The notes under the pieces: generated by a model
Database searches by the model: none
The model's input: the letters and a program-made list of their open reading frames with translations, nothing else
What the model was told of the DNA's origin: nothing
Translations under genes and position numbers: made by a program
Assembly (NCBI RefSeq): GCF_030684315.1
Contig: NC_081366.1
Coordinates: 36,370,078-36,434,077 of the forward strand
Length of the DNA: 64,000 bases
Source: Stegostoma tigrinum
Lineage: Eukaryota
Direction of reading: 5' to 3'
Part shown: positions 2,050-61,717 of the stretch, piece by piece
Position numbering within the stretch: position 1 is the first letter of the stretch
Layout: every line of letters starts with the position of its first letter

Positions 2050-2700
2050 TGCGTTTAAAACCACGTCGTATAGGAACGCGGCGGGACTTGTACAACATAT
2101 TAAATTACTAATGGGGGAAGTAACGTTGTTATAAATTGGAAATCATAAACTGGCGCCCAAATCTAACAGCAACAACTATATTCAACAGTAACCTCCCCTC
2201 CTACTGTAACTGGCAGTCACTGCAGCGCATGCGCCGCTGTTGGCCCCTACAAACGGGCGCATACTCAGTGCAGTCCGGTGGCTGGGACTCAATTTGGCGG
2301 CTGCACGAACAAGTCCCGACACAGGCCGATCCCACACTTACCTGTCCGGGCCCAAACAACCGAGCTCGGTACAGACCAATCCGGAGTCGATTATTTTCTG
2401 CCGTCACGTCGGAAAACACCGCCTCAACCCGCTTCAAAACACCAGCTACAGTCTCGTGAATTCTCTCGTTCTCTTTTCTCTTCTTCTTTCGACTTTTTTT
2501 CCGCCCCCCCGATATATTTTCTTCGCTAATGCTCAGGCTTCTGCGTCACCAACCGAAACCGCTACCGGAAGGCGCGTCAGTAGACTGAAGTGACCAGCCA
2601 TTGGCTGGCAGGCTGTGCGATTACGTCATTGACAAACTAGCAGCTGCTGTCAGACAGGGCGTTGCCATGGAGCTTGGTTGGGAGTGGTAGTAAGTCAAAT
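2050..2700. promoter_or_regulatory. CpG-rich housekeeping-type promoter
   Basis: Local CpG enrichment against a CpG-poor background. Perfect NRF1 palindrome GCGCATGCGC at 2225-2234, ETS motif CCGGAAG near 2565, CRE-like TTACGTCA at 2621-2628, and RFX X-box-like GTTGCCATGG at 2661-2670. Confidence 0.75.
2342..2570 (-). other. Probable non-coding first exon of an unidentified - strand gene running off the left edge
   Basis: Consensus 5' splice donor CAG|GTAAGT on the - strand (plus-strand acttac|ctg, 2336-2344) inside the CpG island. The start position is approximate. Confidence 0.6.
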
Positions 2701-3065: not shown

Positions 3066-4020
3066 GGTTTCCAAACGACACCTCTGCCATCAGCAATCCA
3101 ACCCTACCACTGAAAACATTTTTCCCTCCCCACCCTTGTCTGCCTTCTGGAGGGACCACTCTCTCCGTGACTCCCTTGTCTGCTCCACACTCGCCTCCAA
3201 CCCTACCACACCAGGCACTTTCCCCTGCAACCGCAGCAATGGCAATACCTGCCCCCTACTTCCTCCCTCACCCCCATCCTAGGCACCAAGAAGACTTTCC
3301 ACATCAAGCAGATGTTCATCTGCCAATGTGGTATACTGCATCTGTTGTGGCCTCCTCTACGTTGGGGAAACCAAGCGGAGGCTTGGGAACCGCTTTGCAG
3401 AACACCTCTGCTCGGTTCGCAAAAACAACTGCACCTCCCAGTCGCAAACCAATTCAACTCCCCCTCCCATTCCTTAGACGACAAGTCCATCCTGGGCCTG
3501 CTGCAGTGCCCCCATGATGCCACCCGAAGGTTGCAGGAACAGCAGTTCATATTCTGCTTGGGAACCTTGCAGCCCAATGGTATCAATGTGGATTTCACAA
3601 GCTTCAAAATCTCCCCTCCCCCACTGCATCCCAAAACCAACTGTAGCTTGTCCCCGCCTCCCTAACCCATTCCTCCTCTCACCTATCCCCTCCTCCCACC
3701 TCAAGCCACACCCCCATTTCCTTCCTACTAACCTCATCCCGCCCCCTTGACCTGTCTGTCCTCCCTGGACTGACCTATCCCCTCCCTACCTCCCCACCTA
3801 CACTCACATATGCTGTCTCCATCCCTGCCTCTTTAACTTGTCTGTCTCCTCCCCAGCTACTCTATCCACCTTCGATCCACCTCCCCCTCTCTCCCTATTT
3901 ATTTCAGAACCCTCTCCCCCTCCCCCTTTTCTGATGAAGGGTCTAGAGCCAAAACATCAGCTTTTGTGCTTTTAAGATGCTGCTTGGCCTGCTGTGTTCA
4001 TCCAGCTCTGCACTTTGTTA
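3066..4020 (+). mobile_element. Penelope-like element (Neptune-type, family A), 5'-truncated: GIY-YIG remnant plus 3' tail
   Basis: Frameshifted match to the GIY-YIG ORF at 23655-24137 (…CLGTLQPNGINVDF). C-rich tail; hammerhead CTGATGA at 3931 with GAAA mutated. Flanks tcaaggcattaagt (3048-3061) and tcaagcaattaagt (4021-4034) look like a TSD. Confidence 0.85.
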
Positions 4021-5259
4021 TCAAGCAATTAAGTGTTTTACCCAAATGGCAACACTTTATTGTGAGGCTGTAAAAACAATGGGCTATTTGACAGAAGTGA
4101 CGTGTTCTCTTTTTGATTTGGAATGACAGTACAGTTCATGTACAAGAGTGCAAGAAACCTGGTCAACATAAACTCGCTAATTGCACCAACATCACTACCT
4201 GGCTAAGTTCAGGAAGGACCAAAAGTCTTGTAATATGTTCACATGTTTCAGCACTTAGCGACTTCATATACTCACTTCTTTGATTATCTGTGTTCATATT
4301 GAAGGTGGGTCCTTGATTAGTTGTTGGATGGTGGAAGATCCTGAACCATTTTTACAGCAGTTTTTGGCAATTGCAGTTTTCCAATGTCTTTCCACTTTCA
4401 GGTACAGATTGAGGGCCACTGCCAGAATGAGAATACAACCCATGCATTTGGCACTAATGTGCACCACATGCTAGCCATGTAACCAACTGAACTAGCAACC
4501 TCAATTGCACTGACTCACTGAACTATCAGTGTAAGAACCTCCATGCTTGATAATCAGATAGATCACGGAATCTATGATCAGGAAAAAGATCATAGAAGGA
4601 CTTGCTTTCACAGAAATCAAATATCTGTGTTAATAGGAAGGTAGAACACTAACAATGATTTTTAAACTTGACAAATTGCAAAATAGTGGGTGTAAATGTT
4701 TAGTTAAGATTGAAGAATCAATGCTGAGGGATCTCCTCTATGCTGGAAATCTGTCTATGATCCTCAATAGTTCTCTGTAAAGGGAAGCTGCCGCTGACTA
4801 ATGGAAAGGAGGTCAAAGCCAATGGAATGACTGAAGACCAATCTTAGGAGGTGGTGTGATACAGTCAGATAAGGAAATTTAATTTTCGCTACCTTGGGAA
4901 AAGAAATCAAATGAAGGAAAATACCAGAAAACTGCATTAAACTGCATATGATGAACCTACAACTACTAATGCTATGTATATTATACAACAACTACCTCAA
5001 CTTGATTACTAAGTACGGATCATTTGGGGTTGAAATAGGCATAAAGTTGCCCCGAGAAACTTTCTCATTCTGTCATCATGTTGTTACTGGGAGCTCCTTG
5101 TCATGACTGACCATTTATGGAGCATATTCTTCCCTTTTGTTTTCTCCCCTTAACCCTTACTTTTATCGCTCATTCTATATTTTTGAAACAGAACAGGCCA
5201 TATTGGACTTAGTATTGTATAATGTTCCACAATTAATTAATCACCTCAGAGTAAAGGCA

Positions 5260-9745: not shown

Positions 9746-10338
9746 AAGTTGTTGACTTACTGACCGAACTGGCTGGTTATAGTTCAGACATGTTGTTACC
9801 ATGCTAGGTAATGTCATCAGTGCAGCCTCCAAAGAAACAATGTTGTTCTACTGCACTTGGTATTTACATGATCTGGTCTGTTGAGGTGTTTTGAGCCATT
9901 TTGGGTTTTTTTTTGCAAGGGTTTGTATATGGAGTCTAATTCCACATATTTATTGATTGCATTTACGGGTGGAGAACCAGGCCTCTAGGATTTCCCGTGC
10001 ATTTCTATGGTTGGCTTCCATCTTAGTTCAAGCCAACTATAGATATGCACAGGAATTCCTAGAGGCCTGGTTCTCCACCCATAATACAATCAATAAAATT
10101 GTGGAATTAGACGCCATATACAAACCCTTGCAAAAAAAGAACTGGAAATGACACCAAATACTTCAACAGACCGGATCATGTAAATACTTAGTGGAGTAGA
10201 ACAATTTAGCTTCATCGGAGGCTGCACTGATGATGTTACCTAGCATGGTGATGAAACATCTGAACTATAACCAGGAGCTCAGCGAGCAAGTCAACAATCT
10301 AACCCACAACCCAAGCTACAAATCCTTGCAAGAACCTT
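9746..10338. mobile_element. Fold-back (inverted) Penelope-like element, family B (Poseidon/Penelope-type)
   Basis: About 270-bp arms in inverted orientation around about 10025. The right arm encodes the endonuclease C-terminus (QEFLEAWFSTHNTINK) and a hammerhead core at 10227-10260. Confidence 0.8.
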
Positions 10339-10989
10339 ATGGTCCACTTCGTTATGGTCATAAAGTGAGGCTACAAACAGCAAGCGATGAGGGTAAGTGA
10401 GTTCATTTATAGTTTAGAATGCCTTGGCTGTCTAACCATGGTTCTGGAGAGACAACTATCCAACCACCAACTACCCCTTCCCATACCTGCTTCTCCCCAA
10501 CTCTCCTTCACCTCCACCCTACCTCTGTGGTCAAAAAAACGCAACAATCCTTGGTAATGAAACAGTTATTTTTCATCGCAGTCCACAATTAAAAATACAG
10601 AAAAATAAAAAAATGCTGTCTTTACTGCAGGAATATTGCCTTAATGAGACTCTTAATTAAGTGTAAGAACTCTACACCGGCTATCTGCCACTTGCCAGGT
10701 GGCAGCCTTTCTGACTTCAGGCTGGCCTCTAAAAGTTTGGAGTAGAAATCCTAGTTGTGAGTTTGGCGCTGAGGCCAGTAAAACCAAATTACGGCTAACC
10801 CCCTCCAATCTAGGCCCTGGCTTACTTTAAAAATAAACTCCATGAGTCCCACATCCCTTGCCACTTCAACTCTGCATCACATTTGTGATCTGTTTTTATT
10901 TTGCCTGTTTTGCTCCTGACACTGGTTCAATAAAGCAAGTAGCACTGTTTATTTCACTTGGGCTCTCTGGCCTTAGTAGTTATTTTAAT

Positions 10990-11839
10990 GCTGTGGTTGG
11001 TTGGCTTGCCAAGCTGGTTTGTTAGTTTGCAGAAGTTTCATTACCCTGCTGGGTAACATAATCAGTGCAGCTTCCAATGAAGCGCTGTTGTGCTTTCCCC
11101 CCGGTATTTAAACTCTGGGATCCGTTGGATTTGATTACCTAATTTCCGGTTTTTCCTTTGCAGTGTACGTATATCGGGTCTAGTTCTATGTGTTTGTTGA
11201 TGGCTTTCTTGGTGGAGAACCAGGCCTCTAGTAATTCCCGTGCTTGTCTCTATTTGGACTGTCCTAGGATCCTGGTGTTGTCCCAATCGAACTGGTGGCT
11301 CTCCATATCCGTGTGAATGGAAATGAGTGAGAATTGATTGTGCCTTTTTGTTGCTAGTTGGTGTTCACGTACTCTTGTGGCCAGTTTTCTTCCTTCTGTA
11401 TAGATCTATACAGACAGGAAGAAAACTGGCCACAAGAGTACGTGAACACCAACTAGCAACAAAAAGGCACAATCAATTCTCACTCATTTCCATTCACACA
11501 GATCGACTGGGGCAACACCAGAAACACCAGAATCCTAGGACAGGCCAGTCAGAGACAAGCATGGGAATTATGAGAGGCCTGTTTTTCCACCAAGAAGGCC
11601 ATCAACAAACACATTTAACTCGACCTTATAGATACACCACTGCAAAGGAAAACCGGAAATTAGGTAATCAAATCCAATGGACCCCAGAGTTTAAATACCA
11701 GGAAAGCAAACACAACAGTGCTTCATTGGAGGCTGCACTGATTATGTTATCCAGCAGGGAAATGAAACTTCTGCCAACTAACAAAGCAACTTGGCGAACG
11801 AACCATCCACAGCCCGAGCTACAAATCTATCAAGAACCT
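10990..11839. mobile_element. Fold-back Penelope-like element, family B; spacer-less palindrome
   Basis: Arms meet at ctgtataga|tctatacag (11404/11405). The right arm encodes a GIY-YIG remnant (IQTGRKLATRVREHQLA). TSD-like flanks tagttattttaat (10977-10989) and tagttactttaat (11840-11852). Confidence 0.85.
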
Positions 11840-13667
11840 TAGTTACTTTAATACTTTTAACTCTTAAATGCAGCTTCAACTTTTTGGCAACAGGAGCTGA
11901 CAATGTGGGATTGATGAATCAAATCAATGGTTGGGTGAAAGACACTGTGTTGAAATGTCAACCCAGTTGCTTGGTTTGCTCCCAAACCCTCACTTTTCTT
12001 CTCCCATATGCTGAGTCATTCAAGTCTGCACTGCTTTGCCGGTTTTTCAAGTTTCCATTAAAACAGTTTTATGCATTTCGTTAGCCAGTCACACAGTGAT
12101 GGTGCCTCATAAATTCAGTTTTGTTTCCATACCTCTGGTTGTCACATGGTAATAACACTTCTGGCATTTAGACATTTTTCTTCCTCTGAAACAAATAGTT
12201 AATTTCTTCCCAAGTGTATGTTGGTGATTTTATTTCCCCTTTCATTTTGTTCTGCCTCTTTTACATGCTGCTTATCTGTAATATCTTCCGGTTTCAAAAA
12301 AGGATAGCACCAAAATGTTATGTTTGTCTTTCCTTTCAATAGATATTGGCTGACCTCAAGATAATTTTATTTCACATTTCCAGTATCTGAGGAATTTGTC
12401 AATTTATTTTTGTGCCCAGCCTAATATTCTGTGAATTCAAGCAGGTAGAACCAGTTTGGTCAGAGCTAAGCAAAAATCTCAAGCAGAAGAAGTCTATGAG
12501 GTTCAAAATTATAGCTATCCCAACATACAAACATGTGAATTAGGTGTGGGAGTAGGCTATTCAGTGTGTTGAACCTGTCTGCCATTCATTAATGGCGGAT
12601 CTGATTTGCTGATGACACAAATACAGGTATGAAAATAAATTGTGAAGAGGACATAACGAGGCTACAAAAATATATAGATAGATTGAGTGGACAAAGCTGT
12701 GGACAAACAGACTACAATAGATGAACATATGGAAATGTCTTTTTTGGCAAGAAGAAAAACACTTTAATATCTAAATAGTGTGAAATTGCAAAGCTCTGAG
12801 ATGCAGAGGATATGGATATCTTTGTTCTTGATTGAAACATACCGGATCTTGAGGATTCTTGAATTGTATATGTGGAGAGAATGTTTCCTCTTGTCAGAGA
12901 ATCTAGGACCAGCAATTCCTGTCTAAAATTAAAGGATGCCCATTTAAAACAGAATTGAGCCAGCGCAAGCCTTCAACCAGGTCCATAACAATTCAACTAA
13001 TTAACACATTATAGAAATAGATTAAAAATTGACCCAGGAATATATTAGACAACAATAATATGAAATGGATCAAACCAAATATCCATGCCAACGTAGAGTT
13101 TGATTTTTCACTCAAACAAAATTGAAAATTTATGTAGTCATGTTCTGTTTCCACCATTTTGTATTGCAGTAGTTGGCAGCTTGCCATCTGGGAGTTAGGG
13201 AATTAAAATGCTCCTGTATGACTGCAACATCTCAAAGGATGCACCATTTCCAAAATGGATTTTGGCAGCAGATCGAAAACCTCTGTGGCTACAGAATGTA
13301 CAGATCTATAAAATCTACTAAAAAGCAACAAGCTCCAAAAATTGGCAGCTGAAGCTATGGAGGTTAGGCCTTGTTTAAATCAATTTAACGCCTCCCAGGG
13401 CAGCAGAAAGAGCTGGACAGTCATTACCATAATGCCCACCATGTGTACTCAGGTTTAATGACCTTAACAGGAAGGTAAGAGAAAACATTAAAATTTTTCA
13501 AAAATGCCATCAAATGCACTTCAAACTATTCCCCCCCCCCATTGTTAAGGAAATGTATTCCCTTCCCACCATATTGTTAAAGACAGTATGGTGGCCTTAA
13601 TCCAAGCCAACACTTGGAACTATTCTTAGATTGAGATCAATCAACATTCAAAATCTCTCATGGAATC

Positions 13668-13885: not shown

Positions 13886-15060
13886 GAATTAAACTGGTTG
13901 CACTTACATTTCTGACCTACTTCCTATCCCCCTGTCCCCACGACATCTGCCCTTCCAACCCTCATCCTTCCGTAATGGGTTGCATGCTGATATCCAGATT
14001 CTTCTGGAAATTTTGTCAATCTGATTTGCAGCAATATTGCACTTTTTGAAAATGTTACATCTAATGACTTTTGGGTCAAGATAGCTTCCATGCTATGTAG
14101 ATTTGCGATAGGGTTGCTGATTGTGCAAGCAGTGGTATAAAATCAATATAAAACCAAAGTAAACAGCTTAATGAGCAGGAAACTTCTATAAAATCTTCTG
14201 GATGCACTGATCAGTCTGTGTTAACATGATACTGCAGTCAAGAAGATAGGCATCAATGTTAATGTCTGTCAATTACTTTGTTAAGATTTGTTAATCTCTT
14301 TAAGGTTAAGAGAAATAGATAATGAATCTTAGTTGTATTTGACCACAAATAAATGAGGAGCAGTTGTGACACTAGGTACAGCATGAGAGAGTACCCCTGA
14401 CCAAGTCAATAAACTCTGTCCACAAAGGAAAGATATGTATCTTAGTTTCTATCTCATCAATGTATTAACAAGAATAACTTTGGTTCTTACGTCTTCCTCA
14501 GATTACTTCATTATATGTCTTAGAAATAATTAAATTATATTTTGACAGAACTATGAAATATTAATTACTATCTACTCCCAGAGGTCAGCAGCATGCAGCA
14601 CATGTACAATGTCAACAAATTAAACCTCTGAAACCATTTTGTGAGGCACTTCTGAAAGGTCAAAAATATTTCTACCTGTTGGTCCCACCAGACTTAAAGT
14701 GCACAATTTCAAACTTTGAAGATGATGCAAAAATGAAGTATTATGAACTGTTAAGAGGATGATAACAGAATTCAAAAGGATATAGGGTGGTGAAATGGGT
14801 GGAAATGGCAGGTGAAATTTAATGCAGGGATGTGGTCCATTCTTATCGGAGGAGCATGAAGAAGGAATCGCAAATGAAGGCGCAACCTCAAAGGGGCAAC
14901 AGTAATCGAGTTCTGGGGTTACAAGTGCCTAAATCACAAATGTGACAAAGAGTTCCAGACAGAGATAATGGGAACTGCAGATGCTGGAGATTCCAAGATA
15001 ATAAAATGTGAGGCTGGATGAACACAGCAGGCCAAGCAGCATCTCAGGAGCACAAAAGCT

Positions 15061-15088
15061 GACGTTTCGGGCCTAGATCCTTCATCAG
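15061..15088 (-). ncRNA. Minimal type I hammerhead ribozyme motif (Penelope-associated)
   Basis: Reverse complement CTGATGA-a-ggatctaggccc-GAAA-cg-TC. Confidence 0.7.
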
Positions 15089-15239
15089 AGAGGGGGATGG
15101 GGGGAGGGAACTGGAATAAATAGGGAGAGAGGGGGAGGCGGACCGAAGATGGAGAGTAAAGATCTTCTTTACTCTCCATCTTTGGTCCGCCTCCCCCTCT
15201 CTCCCTATTTATTCCAGTTCCCTCCCCCCATCCCCCTCT

Positions 15240-15267
15240 CTGATGAAGGGTCTAGGCCCGAAACGTC
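15240..15267 (+). ncRNA. Minimal type I hammerhead ribozyme motif (Penelope-associated)
   Basis: CTGATGA-a-gggt ctag gccc-GAAA-cg-TC: intact core, stem II, palindromic ACGT stem III, ct/ag stem I. Confidence 0.75.
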
Positions 15268-15869
15268 AGCTTTTGTGCTCCTGAGATGCTGCTTGGCCTG
15301 CTGTGTTCATCCAGCCTCACATTTTATTATCAAAAAGTTCCAGACAGCCTGGTTAAAAAAGTACACAGAATCATGAACTTCATAAGTAGAAGCATACGGT
15401 TGGATTTTTTTCATCCCAGTTGGTGGGGAAAGGGAACAAACCCATGGTTGGTGGGACAAAAAGATATGAAGAGCCATAATTCTGAAATTTCCACCTGATT
15501 TCATCTTCCACCCTACATGATTTTGAAATGAAGCAGGTCATTGCCCACTGTTTTCAAAAGCAGAACTTCCATATTGCCGCTACCTCAATTTTTTATATCC
15601 TGTAGTTTAAAATGTGCATTTAGGTAGATAGGCTTCTGAAGTCTGTGAACCATGGCAGATCAGAGGGTTCACGATCCCACTGTTCTACAGTCTTTCACAG
15701 CTCTGGACATCGCATATCATTGATAGATAGTGAGATAATTCCAGGACATTATTAATGTAAAAATTGTTGATTGGACATCATTCTTAAAAAGTAAGTACCA
15801 TTAAAATAACGAGCATTTTGAAGGTATAAGCCAATACACTTGGGAAATGCTAACAAGGCAAAGGGTTCC

Positions 15870-20635: not shown

Positions 20636-20970
20636 GACATTTTCTTTTCATCTTGATTTGATTTCTTTACTTTCTTCTCTTGTTTTTTATTTCTAACGAT
20701 TGTGTACTAAGATGGCACTGTAGAGTGGCACCTCTGCATACTTTTCACTGTACTCTTATATTCTTGTACTTGGGTACACGTGACAATAAATAAAATCTGA
20801 AACCTGAAAATCTGAATTTAACCAGAAAGGTGCATTCTATCAATACAGCTAACAATTGTATGAAAAATGGGAAATTGAGATTGGTAGATTAAAGGTTGTA
20901 CTGCTGAGGTTGAGGCAACAGCACCATCTGATAGGTTTTCAGTAAAGGGGCAGAAACAGAACAATAAAAT

Positions 20971-21422
20971 CTCCCCTTCCCCCACTGCATCCCAAAACCA
21001 GCCCAGTTCGTCCCCTCCCCCCACTGTACCACACAACCAGCCCAGCTCTTCCCCTCCACCCACTGCATCCCAAAACCAGTCCAACCTGTCTCTGCCTCCC
21101 TAACCTGTTCTTCCTCTCACCCATCCCTTCCTCCCACCCCAAGCCGCACCTCCATCTCCTACCTACTAACCTCATCCCACCTCCTTGACCTGTCCATCTT
21201 CCCTGGACTGACCTATCCCCTCCCTACCTCCCCACCTATACTCTCCTCTCCACCTATCTTCTTTTCTCTCCATCTTCGGTCCGCCTCCCCCTCTCTCCCT
21301 ATTTATTCCAGAGCCCTCACCCTATGCCCCTCTCTGATGAAGGGTCTAGGCCCGAAACGTCAGCTTTTGTGCTCCTGAGATGCTGCTTGGCCTGCTGTGT
21401 TCATCCAGCCTCACATTTTATT
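20971..21422 (+). mobile_element. Penelope-like 3' tail (family A) with intact hammerhead
   Basis: Near-identical to the tails at 3600-4020 and 23327-23760. Three copies of a ~39-bp internal unit. Hammerhead at 21334-21361. Flanks acaataaaat (20961-20970 and 21423-21432). Confidence 0.9.
21334..21361 (+). ncRNA. Minimal hammerhead ribozyme motif
   Basis: CTGATGAagggtctaggcccGAAAcgTC. Confidence 0.75.
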
Positions 21423-23326
21423 ACAATAAAATGTGGTTTTGGTTTTAACAGCTCAGAAACAAAAATAATTCGTGAGTTTTACGTTTTGACAAAACGAAAG
21501 CATAAATTGTTCAGGAGCTTTAACTGCTGAGATGGCCCATCTGCTATTCCCAACACACTCTGCACATGAAACAGCAGCATCTAACTGATTGTCATGCATA
21601 AGGATGGCAACTCAGAGCACTAATAAATTTTTGTGTTCCTGTCCACAGCATCCACAGTTCTTCACCAAAAGCTGAACATTGATGTGTGGCAATATTTATG
21701 CTTGTAGTTACAATATTTTCTTGGGTTTTATGAAATTCTATTGTGAATGCAGCAAATTTGTAGAAAATCATCTATGGCAATACTTACTGCACAGAAAGAG
21801 GTAATTTGACCAGCCGCGTCTGTGCTGGCTGTCTGAAGGGACAATTCACCTAATGCCACTTGCCTGCCATTTCCTCACAGTCCTACACATTCTTCCCTTT
21901 CAGATAATAACCCAATTCCCTCTTGATGCCTCGACTGAACCAGCCTCCACCATTTTGTCAGTCATCATGGTTACGGATCCTAACTATTTGCTTTGTGAAA
22001 ACCTTTTTACTCACATTACCTCACTAACACCTTCACATCCTTCCTAAAGTATGGTACTCAGAATGGATGAAATACTCCAGTTGAGGTCAGACTCATGATT
22101 TATACATTTAACGTAACTTTATTGGTTTTGCATCTATTCATGAAACAGAGAATGTTGCATGCTATAATAACGATACTCTCGACCTGCCACCTTTAATGAT
22201 TTATGTGCAGATACGCTCAAGTCCCTTTTCTCATGTATTCCCATTAGAAATGTAAGCTATATTTTATAATGCCTCCCTAAGTTCATTCTATTGTAGTCAC
22301 TGCATTTATTTTTATTTGTACACGGAATGTAGATGTTATTTGCCAGGCCAGCATTTATTGCCCAGAGCTCAGGTCGGAGTCCATCACATTGTTGTGTTTC
22401 TAGATTCAGACAAGACCATGTAAGGTTTGAATATTTGTTTAGCAGGTAAGGACATTAATGAATCAAATTATTTTTTTAAGACAATCGACAGTGGTTACAT
22501 GGTCACCATTAGGCTGGGTTTTTTAAGTCCAGATTTTTTTAATTGAATTTAAAAATCTGCCATGGTAGGATTCAAACTCATGTTCCAGAACAATAGCCTG
22601 GAGCTCTAGGTTATGAAATTAATAACAGTGGGATCCAGAATTAATACAAGAAAGTAAGTCAAACAAGCTGTGAAAAATGGAATCAAAATGAATGAGAAAG
22701 AAACAGTCCAGTTGCTTTCAAATCATCAGGCAGCCTTCCCACCACTTTTCTGCATTTCTGGTGAATGTTGAGAGCATAGCACCCATTGTCCAAAACTCTC
22801 ATTCTGATCACAAGCACAATCCCAAAAAGGGGAACAATTAGGAGTAGAAAAGTTTTTTCTTGAAAATCTGCCTCACACTCCACGGAAACAGGGGCAATGA
22901 TAAACCTTCTGCTGCTGTAGAGATAGGCTATTTCAGCATAGAAAGGAACTGAATTTGGGACTCACCTTTACAAAATGGTTCACTTTACTCCACACAGTAT
23001 ACTTAGCAAAGCAAAAGCAAAATATTGCATAGGTTGAAAACTTGAAACTAAGAGGGAAAATGCTGAGAATATTCAGCTGATTAGGCAACATTTGCAAAGA
23101 AAAAAGTGTTCACATTTAGGTCAATAACCTTTAATCAGAACTCAAAAAGTTTCGAGACTTAACTGGTTTAAAGCAGGTCCAGGAACAGAGAAGAGGATAG
23201 GAGAGGAAACAATGGAAGAGAAGCTCTGGTGGTTGAGTGGCAGGCAACAAAGACAAAGTACAAAAGAAACAATGAGGGTAGACAAAGAGAAGTACAAGGA
23301 AAGAAACAAAAAGGAAGGTTCAGAGG

Positions 23327-25059
23327 ATCCAAGATAATAAAGTGTGAAGCTGGATGAACACAGCAGGCCAAGCAGCATCTCAGGAGCACAAAAGCTGACG
23401 TTTCGGGCCTAGACCCTTCATCAGAGAGGGGGATGGAGTGAGGGTTCTGGAATAAATAGGGAGAGAGGGGGAGGCGGACCAAAGATGGAGAGAAAAGAAG
23501 ATACGTGGAGAGGAGAGTATAGTTGGAGAGGTAGGGAGGGGATAGGTCAGTCCAGGGAAGACGGACAGGTCAAGGAGGTGGGATGAGGTTAGTAGGTACG
23601 AGATGGAGGTGCGGCTTGAGGTGGGAGGGAGGGATGGGTGAGAGGAAGAACAGGTTAGGGAGGCAGAGACAGGCTGGGCTGCTTTTGGGATGCAGTGGGG
23701 GGAGGGGATGAGCCTGGGCTGGTTTTGGGATGCGGTGGGGGAAGGGGAGATTTTGAAGCTGGTGAAGTCCACATTGATACCATTGGGCTGCAGGGTTCCC
23801 AAGCGGAACATGAGTTCTGTTCCTGCAACCTTCGGGTGGCATCATTGTGGCACTGCAGGAGGCCCATGATGGACATGTCGTCTAAAGAATGGGAGGGGGA
23901 GTGGAAATGGTTCACAACTGGGAGGTGCAGTTGTATTTTGTGAACTGAGCGGAGGTGTTCTGCAAAGCGGTCCCCAAGCCTCCGCTCGGTTTCCCCAATG
24001 TAGAGGAAGCCACACCGGGTACAGTGGATACAGTATACCACATTGGCAGATGCGCAGGTGAACCTGTGCTTAATATGGAAAGTCATCTTGGGGCCTGGGA
24101 TGGGGTGAGGGGGGAGGTGTGGGGGCAAGTGTAGCATTTCCTGCGGTTGCAGGGGAAGGTGCCGGGTGTTGTGGGGTTGGAGGGGAGTGTGGAGCGAACA
24201 AGGGAGTCACGGAGAGAGTGGTATCTCCGGAAGGCAGACAAGGGTGGGGATGGAAAAATGTCTTGGGTGGTGGGGTCGGATTGTAGATGGCGGAAGTGTC
24301 AGAGGATGACGCATTGTATCCGGTGTGTGAGAATGAGGGGGATCCTCTTGAGGCGGTTGTGGCGGGGGGGGGGTGGTGTGGGGGATGTGTTGCGGGAGAT
24401 GCGGTCAAGGGCGTTCTCGACCACTGCGGGGGGAAAGTTGCGGTCCTTGAAGAACTTGGACATTTGGGATGTGCGGAAGTGGAATGCCTCATCCTGGGAG
24501 CAGATGCGGTGGAGGCGGAGGAATTGGGAATAGGGGATGGAATTTTTGCAGGAGGGTGGGTGGGAGGATGTGTATTATAGGCAGCTGTGGGAGTTGGTAG
24601 GCTTGAAATTGACATCAGTTTCTAGTTGGTTACCTGAGATGGAGACTGAGAGGTCCAGGAAGGTGAGGGATGTGTTGGAGATGGCCCAAGTGAACTTGAG
24701 GTTGGGGTGGAAGGTGTTGGTGAAGTGGACGAACTGTTCGAGCTCCTCTGGGGAGCAAGAGGCGGCGCCGATACAGTCATCAATGTAACGGAGGAAGAGG
24801 TGGGGTTTCGAGCCTGTGTAGGTGCGGAAGAGGGACTGTTCCATGTAACATACAAAGAGGCAGGCATAGCTTGGGCCCATGCAGATACCCATGGCCACCC
24901 GCTTTGTCTGTAGGAAGTGGGAGGGATCGAAAGAGAAGTTGTTGGGGGTGAGGACGAGTTCGGCTAGGTGGATGAGGCTGTCGGTGGAGGGGTCTGGTCG
25001 GGCCTGCAGGACAGAAAGAAGCAGAGGGCCTTGAGGCCATCTACATGAGGAATGCAGGT
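23327..25059 (-). mobile_element. Penelope-like element (Neptune-type, family A): RT, GIY-YIG and tail, frameshifted
   Basis: RT motifs AMGICMGPSYA…FLRYIDD (ORF 24575-24898). GIY-YIG FTCASANVVYCIHCTRCGFLYIGET…RFAEH (ORF 23655-24137). Hammerhead at 23397-23424. Confidence 0.95.
23397..23424 (-). ncRNA. Minimal hammerhead ribozyme motif
   Basis: Reverse complement CTGATGAagggtctaggcccGAAAcgTC. Confidence 0.75.
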
Positions 25060-29919: not shown

Positions 29920-30060
29920 GGAAAAAAGCCGAAATAACTGCGGATTATGTAAATCAGGAACAAAAACAGAAGTTGCTGGAAAAACTCAGCAGGTCTGTCA
30001 GCATCTGTGAAGAAGAAGTCAGAGTTAATGTTTTGCGTCCGACGACCCTTCTTCAGAACT
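29920..30060 (-). mobile_element. Penelope-like family C tail inserted in Gypsy pol
   Basis: Reverse complement gttCTGAAGAagggtcgtcggacgc-aaaa-cattaac (decayed hammerhead). Flanks catcatctaa and cgttgtctaa could both derive from cgtcgtctaa by CpG decay. Confidence 0.7.
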
Positions 30061-31623: not shown

Positions 31624-34600
31624 ATAACAGACCACAAACCCCTGTTAGGGCTACTCGAAGTGGACAAGGCCATACCACGCACAGCTTCAGGTCGAATTCA
31701 GTGGTGGGGTCTAAGTGCATACAATTACAAGTGGGAGGTCAAGTAACAAATGCAGATGCCTTGAGTCACCTCCTGCCGGCAAATACACCACTCGTGATGC
31801 TGCCACTGGAAGGGTCCTTTTTGGTTTTAAAATTTCTGGGTACACTTCTGGTCACCGCTGACAATATCAGACTGTAGATGCAAGAAGCTCTTGTCCTGAC
31901 AAAACTAAAACAGCTGATAGGGCCATCATAACCAGAATTGAAACCAAAGAGGACAGCACTTCGTTATGGGGAGCAAGAGTGATTGTCTAGAGCAAAGGTC
32001 ACCACCAGATACTGGCTGTACTCCACAGGGTCATCTGGGATGTCCAAAATGAAGTGTTGGTGAGACATTATGTCTGGTGGCCAGGATTGGATGCAGACCT
32101 AGACGCATTGGTGAGGCAATGCCCAGAGTGCCAACAAGGACAAAAATTACCTCCAGCAGCTCCCCCCACATTGGTGGGAATGGACAATTAAACCTGGAAG
32201 TGGTTACACATTGACCATGTGGTTCTGCCATGGGCTGAATGTTCTTAGTCATTGTGGACACTCAGTCAAAGTGGTTGGATACGCATATATTTCGATACAA
32301 TATCCATTCGATAAATATGGAATGACAATAGAAAGGTTGTGATCAATTTTTGCAACTCACAGGCTCCCGAAGTGTTGGTCACTGACAAAGGACCGTTATT
32401 TACCAGCAGGTAATTTGACTCTTTCCTAATGTTGAATGGCATTTGGCATAAAGGGACAGATCCATACCATCCATTGTTCAATGGTCTGGCTGAAAGAGAA
32501 GCTCAAACTTTGAGGGCAGACTTTAAGAAACAGCCTACAGCTTCACCACATACCAAACTCCAAACTGTCCTGGTGCCTATTTGATATCAGACCATCCCTC
32601 ATGCAACTACAGGGATAGCTGTAGCAAAGTTACTAATGGGAAGAAGAGACCACACCAGGTTGAATCTGATCTTCCCAAACCTGGGGAGGAGGATGAAATG
32701 GCATAAGGACTGCCAATGCTGGATGCAAAACTCCTCTAAGTGAGAGAGACAGTTTATGTAATCGGACAATGTTTCGTGCTGAAAACACAGCAACGGCCAT
32801 GCATGCGTAAAAGGCATGGTCGAAGCGAGGGCAAGTGTCATGACATACAAATGTCAGATAGATCAAGTGGCCCTGAACAAGCACGTGGACCATATAAAAG
32901 CTGCAAATCTGTAAACAGGGCAGGAGCAAAACGTGCACAGTCAAAGGTTCTCACCAAGATTTGTAGCTCAGGTTGTGGATGAGGTTGCTGGCTTGCTCAC
33001 CAAGCTGGCCGTACAATAACCAGCCAGCTCAGCAAGCAAACCAACAACCACACACCCAGTCCCTCAGAACAGCCAGAAATCATCATGGAATCCCTAGTGT
33101 CCAATAAAAACCTTAAAATCTGAGATAGGCACAGTGGATATTGCAGCCTTGATGCCTTTACCTCTTGAAGAAGAGGGTGAATTTCTTACGAGGTGCTCCG
33201 GGTGCAAGAGGCAGGCTACTGTCTGGTACATGCCATCCGTATCTGAGGCTGAGTCAGAGGAACTGGACCCAGTGCAACAATGCAGTAGGAGAGTCTACAT
33301 GAAAAGCAACAGGTCTGCATCACCAGACCTAGAGGGGGAGGGATGAAGTGATTGTAATGAGGTCAAATACTATGCACTTGTAAATAAAGGGTGACTCAGT
33401 CTCTGTGGAGTTATTTCACAGTCTATTGTGTCTGTGCTAACCTATCTACATGAATCCCACTAGCCAGCACTTAGCCCAAGCATTAAAACATTTTAACGTC
33501 AATTGCTCATCTATGTATTCTCTAAACATTTTCAGGTTTCCCACCTCTGCTAGATCATCTTGGCCTGCTGTGTTCACACAGCCCCACACTTTGTTATCTT
33601 GGATTCTCCAGCATCTGCAGTTCCCATTATCTCTGCTAGACCATGCATCCAGATTCTTCACACTTCAGGTGAAAAGATTTTTCTTCAAATGCCCTCTAAA
33701 CCTCCTGCCCTTCATCTTAAGTCCTAATTTTAAGCATAATTTTAAGTGTTCTTGGTGAGTGCTAACTGAAAAATGTGGAAGCTATACAAGTAGCCCTGCT
33801 TAATAAAGAATCTTTATGATTAGGAATTACATACTAAGGTCTTACTCAAATTTTTGTACCTCTCAAGCACCAAAGGTTAACAGAACACAGTCTCAGGATT
33901 TCTGGTCTCCACCATGACAGCCTGCAAAAGGATCATAATGCCTGCTTCTGTTTCCAATTTCAAACTAGTTTATTTTGCCATTCACTTGAATCTCTGCATA
34001 CCAAAATTAATCTTGCAGGACTATCACTTTACCCAAGAGGAGCACATTTTGTTCATTTAGTTCATTTGGGACATCTGTTTCCTGAATTGCTGCAGACTGA
34101 AAAGGTCTGACATGTAACTTTCAAAATGTAGGCTGTGAACTCCTGTTGCTGCTTTAGCAAACCACCTGAAAATGGCCTGACCTACGCCATACATGTCACT
34201 CAGCATATATGATGGTACAGTTCTGTCACTGATGTGGACTTTTCCTGCCATATAGTAGACAGGAAGCAATGACAGAACTAGTGCTATACCCCCATTGTGG
34301 TTCTTGTCTTGCTGGTGTGTTAGGAGCTTTCTGATTGATAAACCAGACTGAGTTGAGGTCAACAGTCTGACTCCAAAAATATTCTCTGGCTACCCAGATA
34401 AAAATAACCTTTTTTTGTGAAGTTCAGTCTGCCTGACATACTGCAGTAATTTTTGTAATGTAAAATCTTCTTTAAAAACTCTGACAGGTCTTCATCCTGT
34501 GCCTCCATCACAGTGTTTCCTTGTTTGCAATCGTACGTGAGGTGGTATAATCATTCATGATGGAATCAGTGTTTTTGCGTAACCCTTGTTATATCAACTA

Positions 34601-39769: not shown

Positions 39770-40757
39770 CCAGACCATCAATGACCTCATCCATTCGGAT
39801 TTCCCGTCCACAGTCTCCAACCTGATGGTTCCTCAACACCTTACCACCATTTTTTTTCTCTCACCTTCTGTCATTTTCACCACCTGTAATCAGACACCAT
39901 CACCAGAAAGATATTTTCTTCCCCCACCCCTATCTGCTTTCCATAGGGACTGCTCACTCTGAAACACCGTCGTCACCTACACAGTCCCCACCAATCTTTC
40001 CACCACACCTGGCATCTTTCTCTGCAACCACAGAAAGTGCTGCACCTGCCCCTATTCCTCCTCCCTCACCTCTGTCGAAGGCTCCAAACAATCATTCCAA
40101 ACACAACAGAGATTCACCTATACATCTTCCAACCTGGTCTATTGCATCCATTGCTCCGGATGTGCTCTCTCCTTTGTGGGAGAGACCAAGCGCAGACTCG
40201 GTGGTTGATTCATGGAGCATCTGCACTCTGTACGCTCCAATCAACACCACCTTCTGGTTGCCATCCCTTCAACTCCCCCTCCCACTCGCTTGGTGACATG
40301 TCGATCCTGGGCCTCCTCCACTGTCAAAATGAAGCCACACTTAAACTGGAGAAACAACTTATATTCCATGTCGGGAGCTTACAGCCCAATGTTCATCAGC
40401 TTCAAAATCTCCCCATCCCAGTCTCATCCTACGTCCAGGCCTGTCTCTAATCACCGCCTTGTTGACCTGACACAACCTGTCTATCTGCCCTCTCACCTAT
40501 CCGCCCCACCCTTGCCACTGACCAATCTCCACAATCCCGTACCTGATTCCACCTGTCAACATCCCACCGACCTTTTCCCCAGCCCCACCGTCGTTCCGTT
40601 ATTTATTTGACTCCCCTTCTCCCTCCCCAGTCCTGTAAAGGGTCCAGACCCAAAACGTCGATTTTCTTGCTGCTCCGATGCTGTCTGACGTGCTGTGTTT
40701 CACCAGGGTCACATTTTATCGACTCTGACTTCCGGCATCTGCAGCCCTTACTATCTG
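39770..40757 (+). mobile_element. Older Neptune-type Penelope-like element, decayed
   Basis: Colinear similarity to 3066-4020 (CNHRKC, LVYCIHCSGC GIY-YIG remnant). Decayed hammerhead near 40633-40660. Confidence 0.85.
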
Positions 40758-43129
40758 CACGTATGCAGTATTGTCTGGCTTAGCTCTAGAAATACCACAA
40801 ATAACCTAAAATCCCCAAATTAGGGGTGAATTGCGAATGTCCTGCTCGTGTATATATATATATATGGACGTCAGAAAGAAGTAAATTGGTCTTAGGTGGA
40901 TGACCCTCCTGCCTCCTCACAGTTAAATGCCGAGGCTAATACATAAAAATGAGTTAGAAGATGTTTTCTGCAACAACCTGTGGAAGTTATGCTGACCTAC
41001 ATGATAATTTTCAGGAGAAAGGAATTACGACAATTTGAGGGACAATGAGCAAGCTCAATAACAATTCAAGTACATAATACCTTTGCAGATTGCGTGATTT
41101 AATTTTTATTACATTTACACAAGAATGTAAGACTTGTTCCATTAAATTATTTTGTTAATTTTCATTATATCTTTCAAATACGTGACATGCCTCCCCCTTC
41201 TATTTATAAGGCGGCAATAGTTATGTTCTAATAAAACAGACTCTGAGCAGTGTTTTATATCGGGTGAAATTGTGTTGTATGATGTCTTCTTCAAAGCTGG
41301 ACTTTCAGAATGCCTTATTTCTGATGACGTATATAAATTTCATGGGAACCGGGAGAGACTCTCTAGATACAATAGCCCTCTGAATTGTGGCGTGGTTGGC
41401 GGAGGTTTTCTTTTTACGTTCATGTTTTCTGTTCATTTTTGAAAACTGCTAGCGCACAATTAGTTCTAGGCCAACAGATTCTTTACACACTCAAGGATAA
41501 TCACATCTTTCCGTATTCATGCATTAAAAAAAAAACAAAAGACAGGTCTTTCCAGTTTCTAGAATTGAAATATTGAAGGGTTTTAATTGCACAACTTAGA
41601 ATATATAAAATCCAAATGAGGATCACATCTTTGCCCAACAAAAAAAACTACTTGATTTTCAGATGTGTGCGTAAACAGCAGCAATGTCCGTTGTAGAAAA
41701 AAATGTTTTCAATGTATGAAACACTTCCAAAATACAATGCATGGTTTTCCTGCCATAAAAATATCGAGGTGCGGAGCGTTCAAGATTTCCTTAGGGAACA
41801 ATAGTATCTCAATGACAAAAACATGGGCTGGGACACTTGGAGGGTCTGGAAACAGATCCGGTATCTTCCATATCGAGTATCACATTTATTATGTATATAG
41901 AAAGGGTCCCGATTAGACAATGACAGTCAGCTAACAGATGGGCAATTGATTTTGGAACACTCTGAGCTTGGAACAGCTGGCACCACCGTGGAACAGAGGA
42001 GAGAATTCTTAAGTCTTTGTTGAAGGAGATACACATTTGTGAAGAAATCAGTCTGACATAATGCCAATAATGCTAATAACCACTCTGTTGCTGGACATTA
42101 TTTAATAAATTACTGATAGCTTTCTTCATCGATTTATATATGAGGTAAACCCCCTTTTTAAAAAAAGAAATGCAATTGAGTGTCTGTGCAATTTTAGGTG
42201 AACAATTTGGTTATATCCAGAGTCCACTTGGATGATATACATGTTGGTCTGTTTCCGTGCTGTGCACTGTGCTGGCCGTCACATTGTGTCTGGAAAAACA
42301 GTCAGCTGATTCCATCGATGTCTGCACCACACCGACAGCATTTTTAGTTGGTCCCAGCGAAATCAGATTGTTGAATTAGTTTCGAGGTGGAAGAGAAGCA
42401 ACAACTCAAGGTGTCACTTAGAATCCGGAAAATGGTTATTTTCAGGAATTTCTCACCATGGTATTTTTGTTTATTAGTATCTACAGTTCTTTGATGAATT
42501 AAGTTCTTAATCGTATTGTAATTCTATCATTTTCAGTATCGTGATCTCATTAACTATATCTCTGCTTGACAACTGTTACAATGTGTAATTTACTTTTTTT
42601 AGGGATTTGTGTTGTTTCTGTATTATCTGACAGCAAAAGATGGAATACAGCTCCCAACAGTTCTTTCATAATTTGAGATTTTTCTCCTTGAATCCAAAGG
42701 GCACAAACTTGAATAAAACTCAGTGTCCAATTTTTTTTAGACATTCGTCACCAATTTTGCTCGGTGCACATTAAGCATGATTGAGCACTGTTATCATCTG
42801 TCATAACTGACGATTAGTCCAACGTTATCCTGAATTGCAAAGTAACTCAGTGCTTATTTTCCTTATTACCAGAGGTCTCCTTAAATCTCTCTGCTTCACC
42901 ACTACACCCTCATCTTAAACAAAGTACTCAATACATTTTTTGATAAAGAATAACTTTCCATGCTTAAGGACATATTCGTTGTTGCATTGTTGTATTTTAC
43001 TAGCTGGCTTTGACAATGTGAACTCCATGAATTCCTGTGCTAGAATTCACTGCCAAAAGGATACAGATAAGGAATCCATTGTCATCTTCCAAAGGGATGG
43101 ATAGGTGCCAAGATTTTAATACATCTTCA

Positions 43130-43325
43130 AAAACAGAAATTGCTGGAAAGGTTCAGCAGGTCTAGCAGCATCTGTGGAAAGAAATCAGAGGTAACATTTT
43201 TGGTTGAGTGATCCTCAGAACGTTAACTTAGATTTCTTTCCACAGATGCTGCTAGACCTGCTGAACCTTTCCAGCAATGTCTTTTTTTTTTATTTCTGAT
43301 TTATAGCATCTGTAGTTCTTAGGTT
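43130..43325. mobile_element. Short fold-back Penelope-like tail (family C)
   Basis: About 48-bp inverted arms 43139-43187 and 43231-43278 with a decayed hammerhead remnant in the spacer. Confidence 0.7.
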
Positions 43326-44156
43326 TTTTTAAACACATCCTTGCAACTTAGTATTGTTCAACACACCCTGTCCCAATATAATATTGTCTGGAAATACTCC
43401 ATTGCCAAATGAGCCAGGCCTGTGAAAACTCTGATATGTAACCGCAATCCTTGACTCTAAGCTCTTAGTGACACTTGTCTCAAAATGTCAGTAATTCCCA
43501 GGGATGGTAGAAGCCAAGGGCAGAAATGTTTTATTTAAAAAGTGAGGTGGGGGTGGGGTGAGGGGACAGGGTTTTAAGTTCTGCTAAATTAAGAGCTAAA
43601 GATAACAAAAAAACCTTTTTTTATTGGACTAACAGCCTCTAATAATTTGACTATGACACTCAACTTGATATTTCGCTTTACTGTATTTTGATATTACCAA
43701 CCACTTCAATCATCACCAAGTGGAACCCATGGAGGACAAGTTCAAGCAGCAGAATCCAGAGCATCCCACTTATCCACCTCATCAAACCTGTGGCAGAGAC
43801 TGTGGCTCTAGGACTGAATGATTCAGCCACAGCAGGACCCACCCACCCTCACCCCCTTGCCCAGAGTGGAAGTAAGTCATCCTTGACTTTAAGGGACTGC
43901 CAGAGAAGAAAGAGTTTTCATATTATGGTGACAGTGTGGTGTGGTGTAAATCAAAGGTGAGCACCTTTTAATTCACATAATGGGGATCCTTTTATCAGAT
44001 ATATATTCCTTTATACAGAATAGCATAAATGACTTTGTATACAAAATGATAGCACATTTCACGTTGGATCATCTTAACTTGAAGGAAAGGATACATAAAC
44101 TATTGGCATCAAGCTCAACACAATGTCATTTTCAAAGTTAGTGAAGGGCTTTAGTT

Positions 44157-51779: not shown

Positions 51780-54170
51780 AGAGTTAAACAGACGGAAACA
51801 GACCCTTCAGTCCAACTTCTCTGCTCTCACTAGATATTCTAAACTGATTTGATCCCATTATATAGGTATTTGGCCTATATCCCTCTAAATGCTTCCATTT
51901 CATGCAGCCATCCAGATTCATTTTAACTGTTGTAATTGTATCTGCCTCCACCACTTCCACTGGCAGGTTGTTCCATAAGTGCACTAACCTCTGCACGAAA
52001 GAAATTGCACCTCAGATCCCTTTTAAATCTTGCCCCCCTCACCTTGAATCCATGCCCTCTAGTTATGAACTCTACTACCCTAGCAAAAAGACCTTGGCTA
52101 TTCACCCCATCCGTGCCCCTCATGATTTTATAAACCTCAATAAGGTCACCCCTGCCTCTGATGCTCCAGCCTCACTCTATAACTCAAACATTCCAATCTT
52201 GGCAACATTCTCATAAATCTGTTCTGAAACTTTTCAAGTTTAAGATAACGAGGTGTAGAGCTGGATGAACACAGTAGGCCAGGCAGCATCAGAGGAGTGG
52301 GAAAGCTGATGTTTCGGGTCTGGACCTTTCTTCGGGGAAGGGGGCTCTGAAATAAATAGAGAGACGGGGAGGCAATGATAGAAGGTGGATAGAGGAGCAG
52401 ATAGGTGGAGAGAAAACAGACAGGTCAAGGAGGCAGGGATGAAGCCAGTAAAGGTGAGTGTAGGTAGGGAGTTGGGATGGGGGTTAGTCGGTGGGGGTGG
52501 GTGATAGGGAAGATGGACAGGTCAAGGAGGCGGGGATGAGGCTAGTAGGTAGGAAGTGGGGGTGGGGGTTGGTCAGTGAGATGAGAGGAGTGGATAGGTG
52601 GAAGAAAAGATGGAGAGGTCAAGGAGGCGGGGATGAGATGGGCTAGTCTTGGGATGAGGTCGGGGCGGGGCAGTTTTGAAGCTTGTAAAGTCCACATTGA
52701 GGCCATTGGGCTGCAGGGTTCCCAAGCACAATATGAGGTGCTGTTCCTCCAGCCTTCGGGTGGCATTGTTGTGGCACTGGAGAAGACCCAGGATGGACAT
52801 GTCATCCAAGGAGTGGGACGGGGAGTTGAAGTGGTTCACGACTGGGGTGTTGTCGCTTATCATGAACTGAGTGTAGGTGCTCCACAAAGCGGTCTCCAAA
52901 CCTCCGCTTGGTTTCCCCGATGTGGAGGAGGCCAGATCGGGAACAGTGGATATAGTATACGACATTAGTGAATGTACAGGTGAGCATCTGTTTAATGTGG
53001 AAGGTTTTCTTGCGGCCTGGGATGGAGGTGAGGGGGGAGATATAGCACTTCCTGCGGTTGCAGGGAAAAGTGCCAGGGGTGTTGGGGTGAGTGGGGAGTG
53101 TGGAGGGGATGAGGGAGTCGTGGAGACAGCGGTTCCTCTGGAAGGCAGATAAGGGTGAGGAGGGAAATATGTCCTTGGTAGTGGGGTCAGATTGCAGGTG
53201 GCGGAAGTGGTAGAGAATGAAGTGTTGAATCCAGAGGTTGATGGGGTGATATGTGGGGACAAGGAGATTTCTGTCTTTGTTGTTATTGCGGGGAAGGGGT
53301 GTGAGGGCTGAGGTGCGGGAAACGTGAGAGATGTGGTCAAGGGCGTTCTTGACCACTGTGGAGGGGACATTGCACCTATAGCCTCACCCCACCATCTTAA
53401 CCTGTCCATCTTCCCTCCCACGTACTCGTCCCTCCCTCCTCACTGACCAACCCCCATCCCAAATCCCCACCTACACCCACCTTTACTGGCCTAATCCCCA
53501 TCTCCTTGACCTGTCCGTCTTCTCTCTACCTATCTGCTCCTCTGTCAAACTTCTATCATCGCATCCCCCTCTATTTTTTTCAGAGCCCCCTTCCCCTCCC
53601 CCATTCCTGAAGAAGGTTCCTGACCCAAAACGTCAGCTTTCCTGCTCCTCTGATGCTGTCTGGCCTGCTGTGTTCATCCAGCTCTACACCTTGTCATCTC
53701 AGACTCCAGCATCAGCAATTCCTACTATCTCTTTTCAAGTTTAATATCTTTCCTACAGGAGGGAGGCCACAACTGAACACAGTATTCTAAAAGTAGCCTC
53801 ACTTTATATGACTTTATATGCAATATGATGTCCCAACTTCTATACTCGATGCATTGACCAATGGAGGCAAGCTTGCCAAATACCTTCTTCACCATCCTGT
53901 CTACCTGTGACTCCACTTCCAAAAGGATGCGCCTGCACCCTTAGTTCTCTTTGTTCGGCGCACTCACCACTGTTCGGCCATCAGCTGTAGAAGTCTTGGC
54001 CTGGTTTGCCTTAGCAAGATGCAAAACCTAAAACATATCCAAATTAAACCTCATCAGCCATTTCTTGGCCCATGTGATCAAGGCCTTCTTGTCCTTTGAG
54101 ATAACCTTCTTCACTGTCCACTACACCACCCATTTTGGTGTCATCTGTAAACATACTAACATAATTGCCA
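51780..54170 (-). mobile_element. CR1 LINE 3' part, split by a Penelope insertion
   Basis: ITRGHGFKVRGARFKRDLR (51923-52123) and IEYRSWD…LLEYCVQLW (53725-53922) on either side of the insert. Confidence 0.85.
52244..53730 (-). mobile_element. Neptune-type Penelope-like element with inverted 3'-tail copy (53371-53730, +)
   Basis: ORF 52802-53356 CNRRKC…TCTFTNVVYYIHCSRSGLLHIGETKRRFGDRFVEH (GIY-YIG). Perfect 14-bp TSD cttttcaagtttaa (52230-52243 and 53731-53744). Confidence 0.92.

Positions 54171-55239: not shown

Positions 55240-61717
<6,478 letters not shown>

Follow-up and report, generated by a model that had tools for sequence, protein, structure and literature searches.

Layout of the insertion

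The window, by which we mean the whole stretch of 64,000 nucleotides analysed, contains at 14946-15347 a real insertion: a ribozyme-bearing Penelope-like end in two mirror-image halves, with a tail on one side only. That it is an insertion of a Penelope-like element (PLE) we regard as nearly certain. Direct-repeat comparison placed the two copies of the target-site duplication (TSD) at 14946-14962 and 15331-15347 (both + strand), the first base of the right copy being common to the arm end. The left arm (14997-15162, − strand) is a 166-nt, 5'-truncated 3' end (pLTR-type region) of the family, recognized as an inverted repeat and by tblastn with residues 484-522 of the protein P0001; the right arm (15166-15331, + strand), also 166 nt, is a tail-less 5'-truncated 3' end of the same family, recognized as an inverted repeat and by family alignment. 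A 3-nt spacer (15163-15165, + strand) separates the arms. The tail (14963-14996, − strand) was delimited by family alignment and by the two positions, 14960 and 14996, at which family ends pile up.

An earlier note, made from the letters alone, had described two inverted arms of about 165 bp with two mismatches, a 3-nt loop between them and one 17-bp TSD bracketing both, and measurement bore this out. The arms differ at exactly 2 positions (15145/15183 and 15078/15250), the loop is 3 nt, and the two TSD copies are identical at 16 of 17 positions with one mismatch; such a match has a computed chance probability of about 5e-9 per boundary pair. The same note had taken the insertion for two family tails in mirror image. 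The mirror-image arms stand, but the symmetry does not: the left arm carries 34 extra 3' bases (14963-14996) that the right arm is without. Furthermore, the TSD bases 14960-14962 also match the end of the family tail, family contigs matching down to 14960. As these bases fit both the TSD and the tail end, the tail can be taken as 34-37 nt long and the TSD as 14-17 bp; the overlap is possibly a primer-template microhomology.

Among the 105 window ORFs of at least 75 aa that lie outside element copies (of 162 in all), no host domain was found near the insertion, the only one being a WD40 domain beyond 56 kb. A CpG island and the first exon of this WD40 gene occur from 55425 onward (+ strand), with WD40 matches at 56860 and 58562; we take its N-terminus to resemble that of RACK1. 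At the other end of the window, the segment 2100-2720 is GC- and CpG-richer and promoter-like; near 2665-2695 (+ strand) there may be a short first exon with its splice donor. A similarity search for look-alike stretches in other scanned genomes found none.

An endonuclease-bearing Penelope-like family

The focal insert holds the family 3' end only, and the protein-domain evidence comes from another copy in the window and from homologues. The longest family copy in the window (23328-25059, − strand) is a separate, frameshifted insertion in which Pfam, tblastn and alignment identified a reverse transcriptase (RT), a CX4CxxC linker and a GIY-YIG endonuclease (EN), followed by the same hammerhead-bearing end. 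Its Pfam hits, RVT_1 (E 0.003) and then GIY-YIG (E 0.004), are both below the Pfam cut-off. Its endonuclease part matches two proteins (P0001 and P0002, from zebra shark and whale shark) among 516 longer candidates; these cover the copy in the order RT then GIY-YIG at 60-83% identity, and P0002 passes the GIY-YIG cut-off. P0001 spans RT, endonuclease and then focal-arm sequence, and its tblastn matches to both arms are at 87-90% identity.

EN+ PLEs are defined by a CCHH motif whose two cysteines lie between GIY and YIG, and the Neptune and Nematis clades by a CX2-5CxxC linker between RT and EN (PMC8557442, Craig et al. 2021). We found CX4CxxC at that place in the 23-25 kb copy and in P0002, and two cysteines between the VY and YIG motifs with downstream histidines in ORF 23655-24206 and in P0001 and P0002. 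The linker and the two cysteines together point to an EN+ PLE of Neptune/Nematis type, and by its sequence the family is an endonuclease-bearing, Neptune-like PLE, the clade being assigned by motif only. The EN+ PLE features present are RT with C-terminal GIY-YIG, CCHH, a terminal-repeat hammerhead motif (a putative ribozyme), a tail, an inverted copy and a variable TSD. No full-length pLTR-ORF-pLTR copy was found in the window; short head-to-tail joints are present in contigs.

Three other assignments were rejected: the Penelope/Poseidon clade, by the presence of the CX4CxxC linker; an L1 twin-priming inversion, by the missing poly(A), the duplicated 3' end and the PLE-type protein; and a MITE or DNA transposon, by the asymmetric ends, the variable junctions and the occurrence of 5'-truncated copies with RT.

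Hammerhead motifs and hairpin RNA

A motif scan found a minimal type I hammerhead motif in the right arm (15240-15267, + strand), with the core, an extra base after A9, a 4-bp stem II, a palindromic 15.2-16.2 and a 2-bp stem I, features as described by Cervera and de la Pena (PMC4209133, 2014). Its counterpart in the left arm (15061-15088, − strand) was assessed by motif scan, folding and family depth. Here a private G>A change at 15078 removes stem II (0.0 vs -3.7 kcal/mol), and about 94% of X1 family depth shows the other base at this position. Thus the hammerhead that had been claimed for each strand is present on both as a motif, but the left motif is broken in stem II. An Rfam scan of the whole 64-kb window gave no match at the gathering score, and the 3' part of the right arm alone folds no better than shuffled sequence (z 0.23), its best fold not being a hammerhead. 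Minimal PLE hammerheads are thought to act as dimers and cleave poorly in vitro (PMC4209133). An ATG directly after the hammerhead motif opens a frame that runs through the tail, as an ATG in this place also does in rotifer and anole PLEs (PMC3846280, Arkhipova et al. 2013; PMC11167929, Frangieh et al. 2024).

The whole insert is predicted to fold as a single hairpin on either strand (-369 and -358 kcal/mol), both arm mismatches becoming G-U pairs in the + strand hairpin. The long hairpin that had been expected of any transcript through the insert, and put forward as a possible siRNA or ADAR substrate, is thus reproduced by folding, although thermodynamically it is trivial. In such a fold both ribozyme motifs would be hidden. 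The focal insert, which has no ORF, is likely inert, and in this folding model read-through RNA would zip into a 166-bp hairpin concealing both ribozymes. Small RNAs are known from rotifer PLEs (PMC3846280), and siRNAs matching Penelope inverted repeats from transgenic Drosophila (PMC3681739).

A single, fairly recent insertion

Several lines of evidence bear on whether the palindrome is genuine and arose at once. First, the left junction, from flank through TSD to the start of the tail, occurs in one contig each of the public runs X1 and X2 with no differences; this read support covers the left junction, and both runs may derive from the assembled animal. Second, a 276-nt contig of a related species (organism B) matches 14703-14962 with 14 differences in 260 and stops matching exactly at the end of the TSD, its 16 leftover letters not fitting the tail. 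A second organism B contig matches 14000-14584 with 28 differences. Runs with small shares (organisms C and D and most of organism B) do not enter into this evidence. From these contigs organism B, about 5% diverged, appears to be without the focal insertion, the shorter contig being like an empty site. The look for an empty site in related sharks that the earlier note had recommended gave the expected break at the TSD end, as indirect evidence. Third, the two arms share 4 variants when set against both nearest window copies. The one TSD, these arm-shared variants and the likely empty site in the relative uphold the claim of a single insertion event. The arms have diverged by 1.2% (95% range 0.15-4.4%) vs 5.0% between the organism A and organism B flanks; the focal insertion is a fairly young, ordinary PLE stub of the published inverted-plus-tail form.

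Fourth, raw bisulfite reads from another organism A sample contain strand-switch joints within the family, in both mate directions: 367 reads at 15078/15087, 98 at 15087/15092, 87 at 15071/15087, 80 at 15046/15050 and 74 at 15068/15078. These five are part of 15 joints listed of 324, and their positions may be shifted by bisulfite conversion and by the private base at 15078; none of the five is in the X1 contig list and one is in that of X2. Such joints in raw reads indicate that palindromes are common in the family. The listed joints mostly centre near the 5' edge of the hammerhead, where plain copies also start (15089).

An assembly or read fold-back artefact, or a pair of independent side-by-side insertions, would be another origin for the focal structure. 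The read support does lie at the left junction and not at the central one, in runs possibly made from the assembled animal. Bisulfite libraries can generate chimeras. A fold-back chimera, however, would mirror the flank, and here the two flanks are unlike and have a TSD in common; the arms are told apart by 2 sites and the tail; contigs of two runs contain the left junction; and the strand-switch joints come from a different sample in both mate directions. Two separate insertions would not share one TSD or the 4 arm-specific variants. We find either origin barely credible, and the assembly fold-back that had been named as a refutation is unlikely.

The frequency of palindromic copies in the family could also be taken to mean that the palindrome moves as a non-autonomous unit in its own right, or that it has been selected to give hairpin RNA; to the latter the Drosophila siRNAs from Penelope inverted repeats offer a parallel (PMC3681739). 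This is highly improbable. The listed raw-read joints lie elsewhere (15046-15092), none of the 15 listed of 324 falling at 15162-15165; the insert is apparently absent from the relative about 5% diverged; and the left ribozyme has already decayed.

Family ends, tail and abundance

Family 3' ends in public contigs pile up at 14960 (537 contigs in X1, 555 in X2) and at 14996 (941 and 929), with mixed, A/T-rich flanks beyond both; both ends carry the same short motif, ATTATC. The extension between them ends the window copies at 33559-33635, 40600-40756 and 53374-53730, and is missing or shortened in those at 3077-4022, 20966-21423, 23328 and 52242. Assuming a genome of 3-5 Gb, the family numbers roughly 27,000-90,000 copies. 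This abundance gives enough junctions to test integration models, and should copies be transcribed, the family would yield long hairpin RNA in large amounts. Pattern scans for further copies gave none in metagenome and viral contigs and none in prokaryote genomes; two metagenome pattern matches were rejected as chance matches of 20-21 nt.

Family 5' ends pile up strongly at 15089 (639 contigs in X1, 621 in X2, 96 in X12), just upstream of the hammerhead core and not at the cut site, which hints at a defined RNA start or an RT stop. Joints of another kind place a tailed 3' end directly against an opposite-direction tail-less 3' end (14960-14964 / 14992-14998; 163 contigs in X1 and 148 in X2, six joints listed). 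These tail-to-tail joints suggest that copies have inserted into the 3' end of the element itself, or that palindromic units form arrays. Within the window, the family copy at 20961-21436 has a 10-bp TSD and a target that reads as the 3' end of the element itself in reverse complement, with a resulting 11-bp tail-to-tail mini-palindrome at about 21412-21435. A tailed micro-copy of 75 nt occurs at 33545-33641, with a TSD of about 10 bp and the hammerhead lost. There are also head-to-tail tandems running from the predicted hammerhead cut site (15061/15060) to 14960. One such joint is seen in 4 X1 contigs and 5 X2 contigs, and further rows have 1-3 letters in between. Since 15055 and 15083 have joints of this sort as well, the counts do not establish a peak. 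Tandem joints at the cut site would add in vivo use of ribozyme-cut RNA as template.

Other head-to-head insertions in the window

We found four further head-to-head insertions in the window, making five in all. The one at 52230-53744, identified by alignment and direct repeat, is older and belongs to a related subfamily of the same family; it has an exact 14-bp TSD, a long tail-less arm (52242-53373, − strand) and a short tailed arm (53374-53730, + strand), and its arm start points are about 840 nt apart. Two belong to a second GIY-YIG-type family and have a 40-nt-class extension on the right arm: 10977-11852 has a 13-bp TSD with 1 mismatch and a near-perfect centre, and 9749-10340 has a 12-nt spacer and no clear TSD. 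The last (43129-43330), with a 20-nt spacer and a weak TSD, belongs to a third hammerhead-bearing family, of which single copies also occur at 508-614 and 29922-30057. The 6-mer AGATCT lies at the centre of two palindromes of different PLE families (11395-11415 and 15160-15165), maybe by chance (n = 2).

In all five insertions the extension is on one arm only. The spacer belongs to the tail-less arm in three, to the tailed arm in one (the 9.7-kb palindrome, by a weak alignment) and has no clear owner in the fifth, two of the calls having been made by eye or from weak alignment. The 5' ends of the two arms lie within about 21 nt of one another in four of the five. Under independent exponential truncation with a mean of 150-600 nt, a crude null that ignores 5'-end hot spots, such coupling has a chance of at most 0.0013. 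At the five raw-read joints given above the arm ends are 4-16 nt apart.

How the two arms may have been made

In L1 twin priming, two target ends prime two cDNAs that are joined by microhomology within one TSD; the second priming is internal, and the 3' end is not duplicated. The focal insertion is alike in its single TSD and would be alike in two primed target ends and a microhomology join; it differs in that both arms carry the 3' end and are told apart by the tail. It was right that L1-style twin priming does not give the focal shape. Two mechanisms had been offered in its place, cDNA fold-back self-priming and priming at both target ends; the second fits better, and pure fold-back leaves the tail unexplained.

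The spacer carries much of this argument. Together with 15162 it extends the family sequence of the tail-less right arm (alignment to copy 23328-24500), not that of the left arm; beyond the left arm end (past 15162) the family sequence, as seen in contig loose ends, reads differently from the spacer. In a fold-back the template is the arm to which the loop belongs, and a copy cannot exceed the template's 3' end. The tailed copy would be 34 nt longer, so a second RNA-templated step is needed; since the spacer belongs to the tail-less arm, pure fold-back cannot supply the tail. This clean copy thus runs contrary to the simple self-priming prediction. Palindrome tips can lose bases after insertion, in which case spacer ownership would blur.

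Such tip loss enters into pure self-priming as it could be applied here: a tail-primed cDNA would fold back and copy itself, the endonuclease would trim the new end at the inner site, and later loss at the tip would shift the spacer. Published readings do invoke self-priming and endonuclease resolution of the tail (PMC3846280, PMC8557442), and ATTATC stands at both family ends, the anole enzyme preferring ATT (PMC11167929). We nevertheless consider this quite unlikely. It predicts a spacer on the tailed arm, and in three of the four scorable window cases, the focal one included, the spacer is on the tail-less arm; in vitro, moreover, the tail lies between two RT start sites and not at a trimming site (PMC11167929).

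The best explanation, to which we give about an even chance, is that both nicked target ends primed reverse transcription of the element RNA. The GIY-YIG domain would make two nicks about 17 nt apart, one in each target strand. From the top-strand end a cDNA would start at the outer start site and so include the tail, its primer matching the RNA over as many as 3 bases; from the bottom-strand end another would start at the inner site. The two cDNAs would stop at almost the same place, which is likely the 5' end of one shared RNA. A 1-nt overlap at 15162 would then serve to join their 3' ends, and each cDNA would be copied to give the other its second strand. The anole PLE protein, for which a dimer has been modelled, both nicks and extends the two target strands; it favours ATT targets, and its reverse transcription starts at two internal sites that bound the tail (PMC11167929). 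By analogy, the two family 3' ends, about 35 nt apart, match these two start sites. The portions of that paper we drew upon show no in vitro product of head-to-head shape. The coupling of the arm ends weighs against two cDNAs, fold-back being simpler unless both cDNAs copy one RNA to its end.

A combination of fold-back with second-end priming would account for this coupling in another way. Here a cDNA from the inner, tail-less site would stop at 15162, fold over the 3-nt loop and copy itself, and a short cDNA started at the tail site from the other target end would anneal to the new sense strand, closing the insertion. This would explain why the arms are nearly symmetric, why the loop is a minimal one of 3 nt, why the spacer goes with the tail-less arm and why only one side has a tail, with reliance on the two-strand priming seen in vitro for the anole PLE (PMC11167929). 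Against this, the fold-back would begin from a 1-bp stem; the spacer should go with the tail-less arm every time, whereas by a weak alignment that of the 9.7-kb palindrome goes with the tailed one; and an 840-nt loop would be required in the 52-kb case. We hold this combination to be rather less likely than priming at both target ends.

Returning to priming at both target ends, we tentatively propose a general form for the shark PLE families: a double-ended target-primed reverse transcription in which a protein dimer primes both target strands at two fixed start sites that lie about 35 nt from each other on a single RNA. If true, it would explain together why the tail is one-sided, why one copy is inverted and why there is a single TSD.

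Comparison with known systems

Earlier papers on PLEs already describe an inverted truncated copy, a TSD, a one-sided tail, opposite-strand hammerheads and siRNA arising from repeats of this sort; the earlier note had not connected the structure with this published layout. Typically, a PLE copy has beside it an inverted one, likewise 5'-truncated, and bears a 30-40-bp tail, often at one end only, and the mechanism is called undefined (PMC8557442). Inverted pLTRs have been described together with a TSD and a tail of 31 bp, head-to-head being the usual arrangement and self-priming being proposed from junction palindromes (PMC3846280); pairs of hammerhead motifs lie 100-700 bp apart on opposite strands (PMC4209133). 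In the literature outside subscription papers and supplements we found no study of shark PLE hammerheads and no worked mechanism for head-to-head PLE insertions; sharks are absent from the main text of PMC4209133.

The focal insertion shares with the described EN+ PLE layout its head-to-head 5'-truncated copies, junction palindrome, one-sided 30-40-bp tail, single TSD and terminal-repeat hammerhead (PMC8557442, PMC3846280). It differs in that each of its halves measures only about 170 nt, no ORF lying between them, that its family is from a shark, and that its TSD is 14-17 bp against 8-10 bp in the rotifer PLE examples. Its hammerheads resemble those of metazoan PLEs in the conserved core, the extra base between 9 and 10.1, G10.1-C11.1, the palindromic 15.2-16.2 and the missing loop III, and differ in having a stem I of only 2 bp and a stem II of 4 bp, broken on the left (PMC4209133). 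The anole Poseidon element PAc likewise has two discrete tail-bounding 3' ends, A/T-rich targets and a hammerhead beside the start codon, and in vitro both of its target strands are nicked and extended, as the mechanism favoured here would require (PMC11167929); PAc is, however, of the Penelope/Poseidon clade, whereas the focal family has the Neptune/Nematis CX4CxxC linker. Set beside these systems, the focal locus by itself leaves the picture as it was; what it offers is a data point on the origin of PLE inverted copies and one-sided tails, which PMC8557442 treats as unresolved.
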